The notes beneath the pieces were generated by a model that did not search any database, was not told the DNA's origin, and saw only the letters and a program-made list of their open reading frames with translations. Of a DNA stretch of 32,000 nucleotides, positions 12,204 to 22,940 are shown in pieces. The stretch spans positions 150,001 through 182,000 of the forward strand of contig JAUYHT010000002.1 of the NCBI GenBank assembly GCA_030688545.1, given 5' to 3'. Numbering within the stretch: position 1 is the first letter of the stretch; the number at the start of each line of letters is the position of its first letter. The DNA comes from Candidatus Iainarchaeum sp. Its GTDB lineage: Archaea > Iainarchaeota > Iainarchaeia > Iainarchaeales > VGJJ01. The translations under genes and the position numbers were made by a program.

Positions 12204-12992
12204 ATGAGAAGGATGAACCTGGAAGCGGCCAAGAGACGGTTGGATAATGCACTCGCGCGGAAAGACCTCGTCATGCTCGTGGGAGAATGCAAGGTAAAAT
12301 ACCAGGGGCGGGCGGCCAGCAACCTGGCTTATGGGAGTAGGTTGTTGCTCATCAAGGGGGATGGGAGTTTTGCCATTCACCAAAACAGGTTGTTGCGTCC
12401 CACCAACTATTTGATGTCCTCTCATTGGTCAACTTCCCTGGAAGAAGGAAGATTAATCGTATCGGCCACGAAACGGAATCCCAAGGAGACCCTCATCGTC
12501 TCCCTGAAAGATGTGGAGATGCTCCAAGTGCACACCATGGAGGACCGGGATGACGATTTCAAGCTTGTGGGGACAGAGAAAGAGCTGAATGACCAGCTCA
12601 TGGGGAGCTTGGATGTCCTGGAAAAAGGATTGCGCCCGCTCAAGCAGGAGAGCGTACTAAGGAAGGGGTTGGTGGATATCATGGCGGAGGATACGAATGG
12701 AAATCTCTGCGTCATTGAACTGAAACGACGGCAGGCGGACTACAATTCCGTGATGCAATTACAACGATATGTGCACGAGGTGCGCAAGCAGAAGAATGCC
12801 AAGGTCCGTGGTCTCCTCGTGGCCCCCACCATCGGACGGCAAGCCCTGGAACTCCTGAAAGGGTATGGATTGGAATACTTCTCATACACATTTGATGTTA
12901 CTCAACCCCGGGTAACCATTGATGGTATCGACACCAAACAACGCACCATATTCCAGGCGCTCGGGAATAATGGGGCTACTAAAAAAATATAA
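12204..12992 (+). CDS. nucS: endonuclease NucS/EndoMS
   Basis: LVGECKVKYQGRAASNLAYGSRLLLIKGDGSFAIHQ in the N-terminal domain, and VDIMAEDTNGNLCVIELKRRQA in the RecB-like nuclease core. The C-terminal KQRTIFQAL loosely resembles a PCNA-interacting tail. The track start at 12171 is GTG; ATGs occur at 12204 and 12213. Confidence 0.9.
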   Translation: MRRMNLEAAKRRLDNALARKDLVMLVGECKVKYQGRAASNLAYGSRLLLIKGDGSFAIHQNRLLRPTNYLMSSHWSTSLEEGRLIVSATKRNPKETLIVSLKDVEMLQVHTMEDRDDDFKLVGTEKELNDQLMGSLDVLEKGLRPLKQESVLRKGLVDIMAEDTNGNLCVIELKRRQADYNSVMQLQRYVHEVRKQKNAKVRGLLVAPTIGRQALELLKGYGLEYFSYTFDVTQPRVTIDGIDTKQRTIFQALGNNGATKKI

Positions 12993-13063
12993 TCGACCGA
13001 CGAGGAGAAAAATAGGATAACAAGGGAAATATTGATTTGGTTTAACACTTCCATTAAATTATT

Positions 13064-13123
13064 CGGCCGCCGGGGATTCAAAGAATCCCCTCGTCCATCG
13101 GGGCGGCCGATCGAAAGCGGCCC
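13064..13123. repeat. GC-rich structured repeat, copy 1
   Basis: CGGCCGCC-GGGGATTC-AAA-GAATCCCC-TCGTCCATCGG-GGCGGCCG-ATCGAAAG-CGGCCC. Confidence 0.8.
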
Positions 13124-13161
13124 TGGTTGAAAAGTGGACATAGGAATGAAACAAATTGTTA

Positions 13162-13221
13162 CGGCCGCTGGGAGGTCAACGACCTCCCACGTCCCTCGGT
13201 GCGGCCGGACGAAAACGGCCC
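13162..13221. repeat. GC-rich structured repeat, copy 2
   Basis: CGGCCGCT-GGGAGGTC-AAC-GACCTCCC-ACGTCCCTCGG-TGCGGCCG-GACGAAAA-CGGCCC. Confidence 0.8.
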
Positions 13222-13280
13222 TCAAAATCGTGCAGCCGGAGGAAAGCGGAAATTGTCGTCGTTCGGATTAAGTGTCGTTC

Positions 13281-13339
13281 CGGCCGCCGGGAGGGTGTAA
13301 CCCTCCCTCGTCCATCGGGGCGGCCGGACGAAAACGGCC
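13281..13339. repeat. GC-rich structured repeat, copy 3 (abuts the stop codon of the minus-strand gene)
   Basis: CGGCCGCC-GGGAGGGT-GTA-ACCCTCCC-TCGTCCATCGG-GGCGGCCG-GACGAAAA-CGGCC. Confidence 0.8.
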
Positions 13340-13836
13340 TAGTGCTGCTGCAAAATCCCCCCCATGTAGATTAGGGGGAGGCCGCTCACCAGGGCAAGGG
13401 CTATGGATCCATTGTTCGCCAAGGTGGCAGGGGAGAATGTCAAGACGAGGAAGAGGAGCAGGTGCAATCCCCCCACGCCATACCAGAAATGCTTAGTCGT
13501 CCATACCAATCCGGTGGCCAGGAATCCGATGGCCGTGACCAATGCCCAGTAGGCCCATGGATCAGGGATGAGCGCGGGAACCAATTGGGAGGCAAACAGC
13601 CAATGATACACCATCCCGAGGATGACCACGACCAGCCAGACATGCACCACTTTGTTCTTGGACCAATGGGGAACCCATTTGATCATTCCTCCAATGCCAA
13701 TGAGGGAGAGCAATGTCCACAATGGCAAGGGGGTTGGGAAGGATGGATTATTCAAATAGAATTGATAAATCCCATATCCGAAGAGGGTGATGAGACCCCA
13801 CAATAGGATGGATTTGGAAAACCCGCTCATGGCCAT
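13339..13836 (-). CDS. hypothetical polytopic membrane protein (about 5 TM)
   Basis: 165-aa ORF that is almost entirely hydrophobic helices rich in W/Y/G. ATG at 13836 with a TATA-like box about 28 nt upstream. Confidence 0.6.
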   Translation of the reverse strand: MAMSGFSKSILLWGLITLFGYGIYQFYLNNPSFPTPLPLWTLLSLIGIGGMIKWVPHWSKNKVVHVWLVVVILGMVYHWLFASQLVPALIPDPWAYWALVTAIGFLATGLVWTTKHFWYGVGGLHLLLFLVLTFSPATLANNGSIALALVSGLPLIYMGGILQQH

Positions 13837-13910: not shown

Positions 13911-16343
13911 ATGGTTGATATGGCAAGGAAAATGGGAATCATTGGCCTACTCCTTTTACTGGCTACCAGTGGGTTCGCCCTGGCCGCCGATCCCCCGAGT
14001 GGGTTGGATGCCACGCTCGCGTCGATGGTGACGAATGGATATGATGCCATTTATTCCAATCGGGGATGGTCCTCCTTGTATGACTTGCCCCAGACACGAT
14101 TTTCGTTAGACGAAGCGGATTTTTATGATAATGCCGCCGACTTTGGAGAAACCGGGATGTATGGCCTTGCGCTGCGTCAATTGGCCAACCCGGAGTATGA
14201 CCCATTCGGTATTTCGGAGGATGTAGAAACGCAAACTAAGAAATTGGGAGCCAATATCCTACCGTGGATTTGGGTTCCCGATACGGAAGATTTTGGGACG
14301 GCGGATGGGGCGTTAATGCCCAATGGGGGATTGGCCTATGTTCGGCCGGAGGTGCATGGCATTGTTGTCACGGACAACCAGTGCCGGGATGCCACGCTTC
14401 CCTATAATGAATATAGCATTCCTATTGACACGGTTAACAAGATCCCATTCTCCAACCTGCAAGGGATTGCGGGAACAGGGATCGCCTTACTTAATGCCGC
14501 CCAGAAGGATGAGACGAATCGAGATTCCTATTTGCGCATTGCCGAGCGCATGGGAACCCTCATTCTGGACAGCATGATTACTCCCGAAGGGGAAACATTT
14601 GGATTTCACCCCAATGAGATAATGGACAAATATGATAAAAGTATTCCCATCGGGATGGTGCCGTACCAATTCGCCCTAAAAACCACGGGGGAAGACACCC
14701 TTTCCTGTGGGGATGGGGGGACCATCAAACTCAATGAGAACCGGAAGACCTATCTGGCTTTGGCGGGGGTGTTCCTACAACACTTGCATGCCCAAACCGG
14801 GGAAGAAAAATTCGAGCGCGGCGCGAACTATATCTCGGAAGCCATCCTCTCCCAATTACAGTGCGACGGGAGCTTTGTGGATTACACCCGTTGGGAGGGG
14901 CCGGGGATCTATTCATACGTATGCAAACCCACTGATGGGAGCGCGGAATACGAAGCCTATCCTTCCAATGTGGCCGTGAGCCAGACGCAGGGATGGATAA
15001 TTGATTCGGCGCTCATCCTCAACCTCTTGCGTCTGAAAGATGACACCATTTATGTGTCGGATAAAGAATACAAGCGGTCGGTGCACTATTTCTTGGAGCT
15101 TGAGGAAACCGAAACGGGATCGGGATTCACTCGAAATGGAGACCCCATCAAGTACGCGAGCTATTCATTGGACATCCAAAACAGAGCGTATGGCCAGGTG
15201 CTCTTGGCCAATGTTTTCCTCCGCGCCTCCTGCCAGGAAAACGATTCTGGTATTGAATCCCGGCTCCAGACGAAAGCCTATCAATTAATCAACGGGGCCA
15301 ACACCGTTGTTCCCGCGGAATTGGATTACAAGATCGGCAGTGCCTTCATAGGAGACCCGGGGTTGCATGCGTATGCGCTCTCGGCCGCTGCGGACTCATG
15401 GAAAATAATCACGCGGGGATGTGAGGATTGCCGTGATAACGATGGCGACGGATACATTGATGGGGGGTGCGCCGGGGATATTGTGAAATACGATTGCAAC
15501 GACAACGATGCCTCCATCCACCCAGGGGCAGAGGAGGTATGCGATATGGTGGACAACGATTGCGATGGCGTGGTTGATAATGGATTCGATTTTGATGGGG
15601 ATGGTTATAGTGTGTGCAGCGAACCGGCGGACTGCAATGATGACGAATCGGATATTTATCCCGGGGCACCCGAAATAATCGACCAGAAGGATAATGATTG
15701 TAATCTCATCCCAGATGATACGGGGGTGCAGATCCATGTCACTAATGATTTGAACGCGGGAATAGGGAACGTGGATATTCTCCTCGTGGATTATGGGAAC
15801 GCCTGCATCAATGCGTTCAGCGATTTGGTGGGGAGTTTCGACCTGATTCGAAATAAGTGCACCATCGTCAAAACCTGCACCACGGATGAAAATGGGAGCT
15901 GCCTCATGTCCCTTACTAATAGTGGAAAATTCCAAGCATTGGGGGTGGTGGGGGATAAGGGATTGGAATCCGGACCCATCGAGTTCTCCCCGGGAGGACG
16001 GAATGAGGTTTCTCTCCAGGCCAAAGGGTTTGACGATAGCGCCGTGGATCAGAATGATAGTCGGTTGGCCAACAACCCCTCTCTGCTGGAATCAAACCCC
16101 TATTTGGGATTGGGACTTCTCGTGGTGGTATTGATCATCCTCGGGCTGGGAGGACTCTATATGCACAAGACCGGGAGACTGGGTGCAAAAGGAAAAGGGA
16201 ATAGTAGCCCATCGGCCTTGGCCACCCCAAAGAAAGGGTTTTCATTTCCCAAGATTACATTGCCAAAAATCCCCAAAGTAAAAATTTCAGTTGAGCCGGA
16301 AAAGAAAGGAAAAGTGTTGGGAAAATCGGATGGGAAGAAGTGA
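13911..16343 (+). CDS. large secreted, C-terminally membrane-anchored surface protein with Cys/Asp-rich MopE-type (putative metal-binding) repeats
   Basis: Signal peptide is MGIIGLLLLLATSGFALA. Repeats include CRDNDGDGYIDGGC, CNDNDASIHPGAEEVCDMVDNDCDGVVDNGFDFDGDGY and CNDDESDIYPGAPEIIDQKDNDCN. A C-terminal TM segment (LGLGLLVVVLIILGLGGLY) is followed by a Lys-rich tail. Confidence 0.8.
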   Translation: MVDMARKMGIIGLLLLLATSGFALAADPPSGLDATLASMVTNGYDAIYSNRGWSSLYDLPQTRFSLDEADFYDNAADFGETGMYGLALRQLANPEYDPFGISEDVETQTKKLGANILPWIWVPDTEDFGTADGALMPNGGLAYVRPEVHGIVVTDNQCRDATLPYNEYSIPIDTVNKIPFSNLQGIAGTGIALLNAAQKDETNRDSYLRIAERMGTLILDSMITPEGETFGFHPNEIMDKYDKSIPIGMVPYQFALKTTGEDTLSCGDGGTIKLNENRKTYLALAGVFLQHLHAQTGEEKFERGANYISEAILSQLQCDGSFVDYTRWEGPGIYSYVCKPTDGSAEYEAYPSNVAVSQTQGWIIDSALILNLLRLKDDTIYVSDKEYKRSVHYFLELEETETGSGFTRNGDPIKYASYSLDIQNRAYGQVLLANVFLRASCQENDSGIESRLQTKAYQLINGANTVVPAELDYKIGSAFIGDPGLHAYALSAAADSWKIITRGCEDCRDNDGDGYIDGGCAGDIVKYDCNDNDASIHPGAEEVCDMVDNDCDGVVDNGFDFDGDGYSVCSEPADCNDDESDIYPGAPEIIDQKDNDCNLIPDDTGVQIHVTNDLNAGIGNVDILLVDYGNACINAFSDLVGSFDLIRNKCTIVKTCTTDENGSCLMSLTNSGKFQALGVVGDKGLESGPIEFSPGGRNEVSLQAKGFDDSAVDQNDSRLANNPSLLESNPYLGLGLLVVVLIILGLGGLYMHKTGRLGAKGKGNSSPSALATPKKGFSFPKITLPKIPKVKISVEPEKKGKVLGKSDGKK

Positions 16344-20087: not shown

Positions 20088-20308
20088 GGAAAAAAATTGC
20101 CCAATATGCAACTCCTTTTTAGAGAATGGTTTTCCATTACTGACCTCTTTTTTGTAAAAATGGCCAAAATATACATTGTTTTGTTTTGGATAAAAAATGA
20201 GTTAGATGAAATACCAAACAGGTAGAGGGTGTCACGGCCCAAATCCCTTCCCCCACTCCGAAAGCGGCGCCGCCCCGCCACCGGCATTTTAACCCTATCC
20301 ACGCCATT

Positions 20309-20316
20309 TCTATATC
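20309..20316 (+). promoter_or_regulatory. TATA-like box for lhr
   Basis: TCTATATC lies about 30 nt upstream of ATG 20346. Confidence 0.4.
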
Positions 20317-20345
20317 ATCCATCCTTTCCCCCTTTATTCCATCGC

Positions 20346-22940
20346 ATGATCACCACCCTCACCCAAAAAGCGTCCGAGAAGGAGGTCTATGCCTCGCTCC
20401 ATCCCCTATTGGGGGGATATTTCCGTCACCACTTCAAGGGATTCACCGAGCCCCAATTGTATGCCATCGTGAATATCCACCAGCGCCAAAACATTCTCGT
20501 CTCGGCCCCCACCGGAACCGGAAAAACCCTTTCAGCATTCGCCGCGGTGCTGAGCGAACTCATGCAGTACGCGGATGCGGGAAACCTGGAGGACAAAGTA
20601 TACTGCGTCTATGTCTCCCCCCTCCGAGCGCTTTCCAATGACATCGAAAAAAACCTGAATCAACCCCTCGAAGAACTCCAGAAAGCCGCCCAAAAAATGG
20701 GAAAAACATACGACATCCGGGTGGGGGTACGCACAGGGGATACGCCGGCCAGCGAGCGCAGCAAGATGCTCCGGAAGCCCCCCCATATCCTCATAACAAC
20801 TCCCGAAAGCCTGGCCATCATGCTCGTGGCCCCCAAATTCTCCCAATCCTTCACCTCCACCCAATGGATTATTGTGGATGAGATTCATGCCCTGGCCTCC
20901 GGAAAAAGAGGGACTCAATTGGCCCTCAACCTTGAGATATTGCAACGGTTCTCCCCCTCCGTGACGCGAGTGGGGTTATCGGCCACGGTGGCGCCCATCG
21001 ATGAGATGGCCCAATTCCTTGTGGGGAATTGGCACGCCGGCACCCCCCGGGATTGCAAAGTGGTTGATATTGCGCACTTCAAAAAGATGGACATGAAAGT
21101 CCTATCCCCATTGCCTGACCTGATCAACACTTCCCAGAAAAAAATGGATGCGGCCGTTTACAAAACCCTGGATGATCTCATCTCGGCGCATCGCACCACC
21201 CTTATCTTCACCAACACCCGCGCGGCCACGGAAAGGGTCGTGCACCATCTCAAGGACCGCTTCCCCCACAAATACGAAGGGTTGATCGGGGCGCACCATT
21301 CGTCATTATCACGCGAACACCGATTGCAGGTGGAAGACCGACTGAAAAAAGGGGAATTGAAGGTGTGCGTGAGCTCCACTTCCCTTGAATTGGGAATCGA
21401 CATCGGATATATTGATTTAGTCATCCTCCTGGGCAGCCCCAAAGGGGTGGCGCGTGCCTTACAACGCATTGGACGCGCCGGACACAAGCTCCACGACCAA
21501 GTGAAGGGACGCATTGTGGTGTTGGATAGGGATGATTTGGTGGAATGCGGGGTGCTCCTCAAGAACGCCCTCGAGAAAAAGATTGACCGAATCCACATCC
21601 CCCAACGCCCATTGGATGTTTTGGCGCAACACCTTATTGGATTAGTTGTCAATGAACCCCGGGGCATCGATGAAGTGTATGAGGAGGTGCGACGGGCCTA
21701 CCCCTATACTAATCTTTCCCGGACGGAATTCCAGAGCATCCTGGACTACCTCTCCGGGGTGTATGCGGGGTTAGAGGTGCGGCATGTCTACGCCAAGATT
21801 TGGATGGACGAGAAAACAGGATTGATGGGCAAGCGGGGAAAGATGGCCCGTATTCTCTATATGACGAATGTGGGGACGATTCCGGATGAAGCCAAGATAA
21901 CCGTGAAGGTAGGCGAAACCCGTATTGGGACATTCGACGAGGCCTTTCTGGAACGCTTGCAAAAGGGAGATCGATTTGTATTGGGGGGAAATACGTTCGA
22001 GTTCCAATTCGCTCGAGGAATGACTGTTCAAGCCAAGGGGGCCATTGGAAAGCTCCCCACCGTCCCCGCATGGATATCCGAGATGCTTCCCCTCTCCTAT
22101 GATTTGGCCACCGACATCCAGGCCTTCCGCCGGCTCATGGAAGAGAAACTGGCCGCCAAGCGGTCAAAAAAAGAGGTAATGGCATTCATCGATTCGTATT
22201 TGTACGTGGATAAGAATGCGGCGGCCGCCATTTATGAATACATGCGCGAGCAGTACCGATTCTCCCACATTCCTCACTCGGGAAAAATAGTGGTGGAACA
22301 AGTGAAGGAAGAAGGGATGACCAACCTCGTATTCCATACTCTCTACGGCCGCCGCGTGAACGATGCCCTATCCCGAAGCTATGCGTATGCGCTTGGAAAG
22401 CTGATCCACCAGGATGTGGATATTTTATTGGGAGATAATGGGTTTGTGTTACGCCACAACGGGCGGGCGAGCGTGGAGAAGCTCATTGATGTCGTCCATT
22501 CATGGGAATTGGAAAAGATCATGCACGTGGCCCTGCGCAACTCCGAAGTATTGCGGCGACGATTCCGCCATTGCGCGACACGCGCCTTCATGATACTGCG
22601 TACTTATATGGGGCGAACCAAATCCGTTGGAAGGCAACAGATGAGCTCCCGCCTATTGCTATCCGCCATCCAGCGCATGGACGAGAACTTCCCCATTCTC
22701 CAAGAGGCCCGGCGGGAAGTCCTTGAGGATCTTATGGATGTCCATCACGCCCAAAAGGTGTTGCAGGACATCGAACAACACATGATCAAGGTCCAGATTG
22801 TTCATCTTCCTACTTTCTCCCCATTCGCCTTCAACCTGGTGGCCCAAGGACACTATGACATCGTCAAGATGGAGGACCGGCTCAGCTTTATCAAGCGCAT
22901 GCACGAGAAGGTATTGGCTCATGTCGCCCAAACTGCCTGA
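20346..22940 (+). CDS. lhr: Lhr-type (Lhr-core) ATP-dependent DEAD/DEAH-box helicase
   Basis: VSAPTGTGKT (motif I), VDEIH (motif II), SAT, IFTNTR, ELGIDIG and QRIGRAGH (motif VI), plus the long Lhr winged-helix/domain-4 C-terminal region. The 39-codon N-terminal extension in the track (from 20229) is rejected. Confidence 0.9.
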   Translation: MITTLTQKASEKEVYASLHPLLGGYFRHHFKGFTEPQLYAIVNIHQRQNILVSAPTGTGKTLSAFAAVLSELMQYADAGNLEDKVYCVYVSPLRALSNDIEKNLNQPLEELQKAAQKMGKTYDIRVGVRTGDTPASERSKMLRKPPHILITTPESLAIMLVAPKFSQSFTSTQWIIVDEIHALASGKRGTQLALNLEILQRFSPSVTRVGLSATVAPIDEMAQFLVGNWHAGTPRDCKVVDIAHFKKMDMKVLSPLPDLINTSQKKMDAAVYKTLDDLISAHRTTLIFTNTRAATERVVHHLKDRFPHKYEGLIGAHHSSLSREHRLQVEDRLKKGELKVCVSSTSLELGIDIGYIDLVILLGSPKGVARALQRIGRAGHKLHDQVKGRIVVLDRDDLVECGVLLKNALEKKIDRIHIPQRPLDVLAQHLIGLVVNEPRGIDEVYEEVRRAYPYTNLSRTEFQSILDYLSGVYAGLEVRHVYAKIWMDEKTGLMGKRGKMARILYMTNVGTIPDEAKITVKVGETRIGTFDEAFLERLQKGDRFVLGGNTFEFQFARGMTVQAKGAIGKLPTVPAWISEMLPLSYDLATDIQAFRRLMEEKLAAKRSKKEVMAFIDSYLYVDKNAAAAIYEYMREQYRFSHIPHSGKIVVEQVKEEGMTNLVFHTLYGRRVNDALSRSYAYALGKLIHQDVDILLGDNGFVLRHNGRASVEKLIDVVHSWELEKIMHVALRNSEVLRRRFRHCATRAFMILRTYMGRTKSVGRQQMSSRLLLSAIQRMDENFPILQEARREVLEDLMDVHHAQKVLQDIEQHMIKVQIVHLPTFSPFAFNLVAQGHYDIVKMEDRLSFIKRMHEKVLAHVAQTA

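Follow-up and report, generated by a model that had tools for sequence, protein, structure and literature searches.

The archaea of the DPANN group have tiny genomes with very little non-coding DNA, and we know of almost nothing on their RNA biology or small mobile elements. Here, we describe a short repeated element found in 32,000 nucleotides of Candidatus Iainarchaeum sp. (assembly GCA_030688545.1, contig JAUYHT010000002.1, positions 150,001 to 182,000 of the forward strand; this whole stretch is called the window, G+C ~51%). Three copies lie between nucS and a convergent membrane-protein gene, and they belong to an undescribed, lineage-restricted family of ~50–61-nt two-hairpin elements from a small groundwater clade of Candidatus Diapherotrites (DPANN). 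Comparison of the copies indicates purifying selection on a 25-nt core sequence and on the pairing of the larger hairpin, H1. A repeat search places the three as direct, GC-rich copies of 61 nt each on the + strand, in agreement with an earlier reading of the window (the original prediction), which had also described them correctly as filling the gap between the two genes, with the membrane-protein stop codon abutting the third copy. In window positions, the locus reads:

12204 to 12992, + strand: archaeal nucS (EndoMS), upstream of and co-oriented with the elements; NF003270 at 226 bits, Pfam NucS_N and NucS_C; 12204 is the most likely start
12993 to 13063, + strand: spacer from the nucS stop to w1, without a T-run or terminator; its 3' end is AAATTATT
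13064 to 13124, + strand: copy w1; 5' arm CGGCCGCC (13064–13071), H1 13072–13090 (GGGGATTC aaa GAATCCCC), linker 13091–13097, core 13098–13122 including the second hairpin, H2, at 13105–13122 (GGCCG ATCGAAAG CGGCC); covariance model R1 73.7 bits, E 1e-16; RNA fold z = -2.46
13162 to 13222, + strand: copy w2; 5' arm CGGCCGCT (13162–13169), H1 13170–13188 (GGGAGGTC aac GACCTCCC), linker 13189–13195, core 13196–13220 including H2 at 13203–13220, the core being identical to that of Hainich groundwater and L051 copies; R1 76.7 bits; RNA fold z = -2.97
13228 to 13251, + strand: degenerate core remnant without H1, between w2 and w3 (TCGTGCAGCCGGAGGAAAGCGGAA); member of repeat family D2
13281 to 13341, + strand: copy w3; 5' arm 13281–13288, H1 13289–13307 (GGGAGGGT gta ACCCTCCC), linker 13308–13314, core 13315–13339 including H2 at 13322–13339; R1 78.9 bits
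13339 to 13836, − strand: 165-aa membrane-protein gene, convergent with nucS; lineage-specific, without a Pfam or NCBIfam match; an identical protein is listed under Candidatus Diapherotrites

The copies are 72–77% identical to w1, the centre of the repeat being the variable part, and in the window a search pattern based on the conserved flanks has three matches against 0.00 expected (100 shuffles). They are spaced 98 and 119 nt apart, the second spacing being longer because the remnant at 13228–13251 sits there. This remnant escaped the original prediction and is the sole extra core match in the window at ≤6 edits on both strands. The end of the w3 core shares one base (13339) with the stop codon of the membrane-protein gene (13339–13341, − strand). 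An AAATT(A/G)TT motif had been said to precede the copies; it stands immediately 5' of w1 and w2 (flank similarity p = 0.024) but ~35 nt upstream of w3, and is local to the two window copies only. The spacer at 12993–13063 is not significantly similar to other spacers or gene ends, and no terminator-like or promoter-like site was found in 12993–13345.

The family has a common layout. H1 is GC-clamped, 7–11 bp long with a loop of 3–4 nt, and usually begins GGG. A pyrimidine-rich linker of 5–14 nt ending in TCG leads to the nearly invariant core, most commonly TCGGTGCGGCCGGACGAAAACGGCC, whose last 18 nt form H2 (GGCCG, an 8-nt loop and CGGCC; in general form GGCCR/YGGCC, with CGAAA in the loop). 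Ten further copies were found in related groundwater archaea, which brings the family to 13 distinct copies in no fewer than 8 genomes or contigs. Scanning metagenomes with the 3' core yielded four true relatives in Hainich groundwater contigs (L011, L013, L014 and L015), the other matches being chance occurrences inside GC-rich coding DNA, and six more copies (two in L017 and one each in L050, L051, L052/L053 and L054) came from loci fetched via homologues of neighbouring proteins. When the relatives were checked with two covariance models over ~220 kb of clade DNA, no full copy appeared beyond the 13. The only extra match is a decayed copy at L051 2071–2119 (−), in which H1 is intact (GGGAGAAT/ATTCTCCC) and the core eroded; the two genes that flank this copy both run on its strand.

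Elsewhere the element is not found. Scanning the GTDB representative genomes, which do not include the window genome, with the full pattern gave three matches only, all in GC-rich bacterial records, and the one inspected was a chance match. Viral contigs, scanned once with the exact core and once with a degenerate version of 16 bases, yielded either no match or chance ones in GC-rich phage DNA. Translating the elements in all six frames gave no match in a protein database at E ≤10, and a literature search on the core sequence and on repeat elements of DPANN came back empty.

The pairing of H1 is strict throughout the family. The statistics were computed on a model-based alignment of the 13 copies that was fitted to this structure, which favours the structure, and the stems are also evident in the raw sequences without alignment. 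All 104 of 104 H1 cells are paired (100%) and 8 of 8 pairs change on both sides. The H1 covariation score is 0.63 versus 0.19 in shuffles, none of 500 shuffles reaches the observed pairing or covariation, and sliding the partners by 1–3 columns lowers pairing to 28–54%. As first described, the inner stems of the window copies (GGGGATTC/GAATCCCC, GGGAGGTC/GACCTCCC and GGGAGGGT/ACCCTCCC) vary at 5 of 8 positions with every change compensated. Compensation extends to the further copies, H1 being fully paired in all ten, and the claim that the inner hairpin is constrained for pairing and not for sequence is thus borne out on 13 copies. For H2 (95% paired), comparison of the copies gives modest support: one compensated pair, G-C to A-T, occurs in three copies from three genomes (GGCCAG/CTGGCC, here called a-type), which gain a sixth pair, and elsewhere in H2 there is a single G.U, and three cells are mismatched in copies that are decaying. 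The relatives fold as H1 plus H2 with z of -2.5 to -4.0. A pseudoknot between the linker and the H2 loop (UCG with CGA) was considered and dropped; it involves only invariant bases, so covariation is uninformative. Template-switch mutation can produce perfect compensation in one step (PMC8794818), and compensation alone is therefore no proof of selection on RNA.

Further evidence for selection comes from the enolase locus. In L017, L050, L051, L052 and L054 the element starts 5 nt after the enolase stop codon, and L018 has a decayed H1 there. At this locus, the stretches that hold the element and the copied gene end following it are:

L017, 245 to 490
L050, 3039 to 3142
L051, 10570 to 10668
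L052, 5259 to 5343
L054, 1925 to 2029

The a-type follows TAG GCCTA and carries H2 as GGCCAG/CTGGCC, a second form (b-type) follows TAA TCCTC and has the canonical core, and L017 holds both in tandem. Between orthologous elements 8–15% of positions differ, compared with 42–52% of third positions in 93 adjacent enolase codons (binomial P 3e-5 to 3e-11), so that the element changes about four times more slowly. Conservation sets in at the stop codon, and the final codons of enolase are as diverged as the others; hence, recent transfer of the whole region is no explanation. The window cluster gives a similar picture: arm, linker and core are ~90% identical among the copies, H1 differs at up to 5 of 8 pairs, and the spacers between copies are unalignable, with no detectable similarity. 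The 25-nt core of w2 recurs unchanged in genomes with an enolase protein of only ~62% identity.

These results bear on an account in which the elements have no function and are ordinary hairpins of the terminator type that local tandem duplication has multiplied and whose stems template switching or gene conversion keeps perfect. Such duplication would fit the tandem periods of 98, 119, 99 and 105 nt, and in L051 the b-type H1 resembles the native downstream terminator hairpin. Gene conversion clearly acts on the adjacent duplicated gene ends (L054), and the template-switch mechanism is documented (PMC8794818). However, this account leaves unexplained how a 25-nt core stays identical between genomes whose synonymous sites are saturated, why the same element recurs at loci that are unrelated, and why the window copies kept their flanks while the spacers diverged past recognition. 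It is weakened further by the enolase-locus test and by the lack of a T-run after the hairpins, and we regard it as very improbable.

The element sits at gene boundaries: after stop codons, in leaders and between convergent genes. At the junction of nucS and the membrane-protein gene, the orthologous spacer is only 10–62 nt in four relatives (L017, L018/L019, L027 and L050) versus 346 nt in the window, and the window cluster is therefore an insertion. At this junction L017 (4219–4263) and L018 (10496–10533) have a hairpin followed by a run of 4–8 T in a T-rich stretch, which the window is without; by its sequence it looks like a bidirectional intrinsic-type terminator, unusual for archaea. Near-identical copies of the element occur at three unrelated loci from one groundwater site (L011, L013 and L014). 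Decayed copies are found at 13228–13251 in the window, just after the L018 enolase stop codon and at L051 2071–2119. Three independent short-read assemblies of the same organism (two Logan contigs of one run and one NCBI contig) break inside the cluster, at ~13191, 13252 and 13289, the contig ends of L006, L005 and L004, which suggests further near-identical copies or strain variation in copy number. The family reaches new sites and builds up short tandem arrays, which then decay. Fold-back copying of H1 from the flank of the local target was rejected, three unrelated loci sharing one H1, and so was a role as restriction site, as GGCC and CGGCCG are not avoided elsewhere in the window.

Such turnover would also fit selfish DNA in the manner of repetitive extragenic palindromic (REP) elements, their inverted doublets (REPINs) or palindrome-associated transposable elements (PATEs). 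Here, hairpins would be recognised as single-stranded DNA by a Y1/HUH-type transposase encoded elsewhere, copies would be tolerated between genes, and perfect stems would be kept because the enzyme needs them. The copies occupy different loci in each genome and are absent at orthologous sites. They cluster between convergent genes as arrays of REP elements, or bacterial interspersed mosaic elements (BIMEs), do. Near-identical copies occur at L011, L013 and L014, and assemblies break at the cluster. All 104 H1 cells are Watson-Crick without wobble, and H1 contains paired insertions, both of which template switching can also give (PMC8794818). However, orthologous copies are conserved across speciation far above neutral, which host-level selection explains and a selfish repeat does not, and H1, the larger hairpin, varies in sequence, unlike what is expected of a transposase site. 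There is no conserved GTAG-like box, fixed target, target-site duplication (TSD) or inverted doublet, and density is low, with one cluster in ~50 kb. Within a stretch reaching ~12 kb to the left and 26 kb to the right of the cluster, and in the loci fetched from the relatives, no called gene has a transposase, integrase or reverse transcriptase (RT) domain. This origin is the main rival to our preferred explanation, and we consider it possible, though doubtful.

In kind, the element is nearest to REP-type structured intergenic repeats, and it is a member of no known family. Bacterial REP elements include some that are mobilised by REP-associated tyrosine transposases (RAYTs) and some co-opted as mRNA 3'-end stabilisers or protein-binding sites. 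Like REP elements and BIMEs, the archaeal element is short, GC-rich, hairpin-forming and extragenic, often occurs in small arrays between convergent genes just after stop codons, is present or absent at orthologous sites and keeps its pairing through compensated changes. It is extragenic and palindromic, with only 13 full copies found in the ~220 kb of clade DNA. It differs in that it is archaeal (DPANN), its copies are direct and not alternating, its density is low and no RAYT gene is known. Furthermore, its large hairpin is free in sequence beside an invariant 25-nt core, and gene-end duplications abut it. The linker reads GTAGT, GTAAT, GTATT, CGTCC or GTTTC, without the invariant GTAG of the REP box. 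Hairpin-shape recognition of the kind known from REPINs and PATEs, which are non-autonomous and without fixed TSD, would explain the Watson-Crick stems. However, REPINs are inverted doublets of a conserved REP, and PATEs have two conserved sub-terminal hairpins and insert beside a fixed tetra- or pentanucleotide, neither of which is seen here; the element instead has a varying H1, no motif common to the 5' side of its copies, and long flanking duplications. Miniature inverted-repeat transposable elements are no better match, as the only shared 'terminal inverted repeat' is CGGCC(G), in the window subfamily only, and there is no fixed-length TSD. A CRISPR array does not fit 72–77% identity, a variable repeat centre and a neighbourhood without cas genes.

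The original prediction had further proposed that the 5' arm pairs with a downstream segment to enclose H1, and that this helix and H2 exclude one another as in a switch. The pairing of CGGCCGCC with GGCGGCCG exists in w1 and w3 (9 and 10 contiguous pairs, flanking bases included), but w2 has only 7, with a T.T mismatch in place of the eighth pair, the sole variable pair of the outer helix. The 5-bp GGCCG/CGGCC stem is indeed present in all three window copies, and the CGTCC/GGACG pairing occurs, as described, in w2 and w3 only. The arm, CGGCCGC(C/T), is confined to the three window copies and absent from 10 of 13, and the best pairing of 5' flank with tail is 7–10 bp in the window copies versus 3–6 bp in the remaining ten. 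The hexamer CGGCCG is identical to its reverse complement and has three direct occurrences in each window copy, which had been overlooked; any two occurrences can pair, so several mutually exclusive helices must arise. RNAfold pairs the 5' arm with the 3'-terminal CGGCC in w1 and w2, and with the middle GGCGGCCG in w3. The enclosing helix, found in 3 of 13 copies, has no compensated change and a T.T at its variable pair, and is not supported by the comparison. With a window-only arm, no covariation and alternatives that are those of a repeated palindromic hexamer, the switch has no comparative support. The arm itself may matter in the window subfamily, as the window copies retain it while their spacers diverged past recognition, and a GGCC box 5' of H1 recurs in the a-type elements of L050 and L054 (GGCT in L017a) and in L015.

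Several copies are accompanied by duplicated gene ends. In the complete enolase units (L017a and L017b, the a-type and b-type units of L017, and L050, L051 and L054), the core is directly followed by another copy of the final 42 nt of enolase together with its stop codon; there are three of these copies in L017 and a truncated one in L052. In L014 (1752–1880), the opening 25 nt of a PD-(D/E)XK-like nuclease gene on the minus strand occur twice, on either side of the element plus 24 nt. The two 25-nt copies have 3 differences, all synonymous, and the upstream one opens a 33-codon frame that runs through the element and stops in TGATG on the true start, 8 nt after GGAG. In L015 only AGGCCC is repeated on either side of the element, which is not significant. 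The right junction always falls exactly at the end of the core, and the left copy stops 0–24 nt before H1. By flank comparison, five copies have no duplication, w1 has none beyond the repeat-unit motif, and three have duplications of 25 or 41–44 nt. No gene-end duplication is detectable at the window cluster; reading its spacers as decayed ends of enolase, nucS or the membrane-protein gene was suggestive by eye, and neither shuffle tests nor a window-wide ranking made it significant.

The displaced enolase ends evolve like coding DNA. Between displaced and functional ends, 24 of 28 differences are at third positions, and among displaced copies the differences number 9, 3 and 32 by codon position. 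The displaced copy of L054 has been converted by its neighbour, and all displaced copies have GAT (Asp) where every real enolase has GAA. This pattern is likely due to gene conversion between the two copies. Read-through translation into the second gene end is unlikely, as the H1 loop of L051 contains a stop codon and the frame does not match in L050. The elements of L017a and L054 differ without third-position bias in a manual codon-position count.

A gene 3' end duplicated beside a GC-rich hairpin, a few nucleotides after the stop codon, recalls the cis elements of diversity-generating retroelements (DGRs), which are common in DPANN. There, such a hairpin follows the variable repeat, and the template repeat is a copy of the gene 3' end. 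The likeness extends to the two 3'-end copies of the gene, but differences between the enolase-locus duplicates are not adenine-specific, the 42-nt repeat lies in a housekeeping enolase, no RT or accessory Avd gene occurs within 10–25 kb, and the element also occurs without a gene-end copy, as in the window cluster. We give this explanation almost no credence.

The junctions also bear on a self-contained small RNA, either a trans-acting one or a self-processing RNA (a ribozyme or a substrate of RNase P/Z) that ends at the core and is copied in the manner of short interspersed nuclear elements (SINEs). Invariant junction and loop nucleotides beside sequence-free stems are ribozyme- or aptamer-like. 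The right boundary is exact, with the duplicated flank at position 0 after the core in L014, L017a, L017b, L050, L051 and L054, and the left boundary of 0–24 nt, the duplications of 6, 25 and 41–44 nt and the 3'-only remnant recall target-primed reverse transcription. In L015 (1510–1631, −) the core stops 1 nt short of a tRNA-Val(GAC) gene (50.6 bits with Rfam tRNA), with no TATA-like sequence between them, and this copy must therefore lie in the pre-tRNA leader; RNase P cleavage of that pre-tRNA would free an RNA ending in CGGCCA. Nonetheless, the copies share no promoter motif upstream, no reverse transcriptase was seen in the fetched loci, no known ribozyme model matches at E ≤10 and there is no CUGAUGA box. 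The enolase arrays can also be explained by one old tandem duplication plus unequal crossing-over. A small RNA of this kind is, in our view, unlikely. More speculative still, and quite improbable, is a mobile RNA module, that is, a new self-processing RNA copied via an RNA intermediate that duplicates a variable stretch of the target gene terminus. The exact right and variable left junctions, the variable duplications, the 3'-only remnant and the tRNA-abutting copy all fit it and none proves it; if true, DPANN archaea would possess a retroelement of the SINE kind or a new class of ribozyme.

The element matches no Rfam family, and the original prediction had not recognised it as a known RNA either: with Rfam 15, nothing in the whole window reaches a gathering threshold, and at E ≤10 the only match in 12900–13500 is PreQ1-III, with 13 bits against a threshold of 63 (E 6.8). 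On seven related loci, Rfam gives nothing over the elements. Small self-cleaving ribozymes (hammerhead, hepatitis delta virus (HDV)-like, twister, pistol and hatchet) have no Rfam match at E ≤10, no CUGAUGA box was seen by inspection, and the helix order is unlike the HDV-type nested pseudoknot. H2 is like a tRNA T-arm in its 5-bp stem closed by G-C and the CGAA(A) in its loop, and one copy stands directly 5' of a tRNA gene. However, its loop has 8 nt (6 in the a-type) and not 7, lacks U54-U55, and neither the Rfam tRNA model nor ARAGORN gives a match; the likeness is a resemblance only. K-turn, H/ACA, C/D-box, selenocysteine insertion sequence, attC and bulge-helix-bulge intron layouts were compared by eye and none fits. 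As no T-run follows either hairpin, the element is not a canonical terminator. At the enolase locus the copies lie between the stop codon and the real terminator, the hairpin plus T-run of the relatives lying beyond both the element and the gene-end copy.

Our preferred explanation, which we hold tentatively, is a selected structured module of untranslated regions (UTRs) and intergenic DNA that spreads by duplication. Most likely, the element would act within the transcripts of neighbouring genes as a UTR module. In favour are the L015 copy in the pre-tRNA leader, the enolase copies ahead of the real terminator, and two wobble pairs that fall on the + strand, a G.U within H2 and a U.G that extends H1. 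H1 may serve as a stable clamp that protects or delimits an RNA end, and the invariant H2 and core would be a candidate sequence-specific recognition site for a protein or nuclease. The family would behave like bacterial REP elements, both mobile and co-opted, and the array of three in the window may serve the convergent nucS and membrane-protein pair, which is without the hairpin-plus-T-run terminator of the relatives.

Several observations weigh against this explanation. The sites are mixed, 3' of enolase and nucS and 5' of a NOG1-type GTPase gene and tRNA-Val, and one copy is antisense within the duplicated 5' end of the nuclease gene (L014); a single cis function does not account for all these contexts. 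The element is absent from the close relatives L026 and L027 and from the enolase of the window genome itself. No T-run follows either hairpin, and no partner protein is known. H1 has no G.U in its 104 modelled cells, and some of its changes are paired insertions. Such a stem is unusual for a gradually evolving RNA and fits DNA arm-to-arm copying (PMC8794818) or DNA-hairpin recognition, so that the molecule may be RNA or single-stranded DNA. With selected copies on one side and different loci in different genomes on the other, structured RNA and hairpin-recognised mobile DNA both stand.

In either case, the element combines an invariant core with cross-species selection where a housekeeping gene ends and with a continued ability to reach new gene boundaries. 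It is a candidate for a new archaeal cis-acting RNA signal, in 3'-end formation, stability or processing, or for the first REP-like system of the DPANN group, and the covariance model makes the question testable on existing groundwater metagenomes and metatranscriptomes. The gene-end duplications, evolving like coding DNA, bear on how elements insert without killing target genes.

Some further features of the window were recorded. No tRNA was found in it. CTAG is strongly avoided throughout, with 9 occurrences where base composition predicts ~125; no avoidance is seen for GGCC, CCGG, GCGC or CGCG. An Lhr-type helicase contains an intein with a LAGLIDADG endonuclease in L018 (1–2221, 1334 aa), and the window copy (~20229–22940, 864 aa as called) is without it. 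Adjoining the membrane-protein gene, at 13911–16343, is a gene for an 810-aa protein with MopE-type metal-binding repeats, and this MopE-repeat/membrane-protein gene pair is syntenic with enolase throughout the clade.

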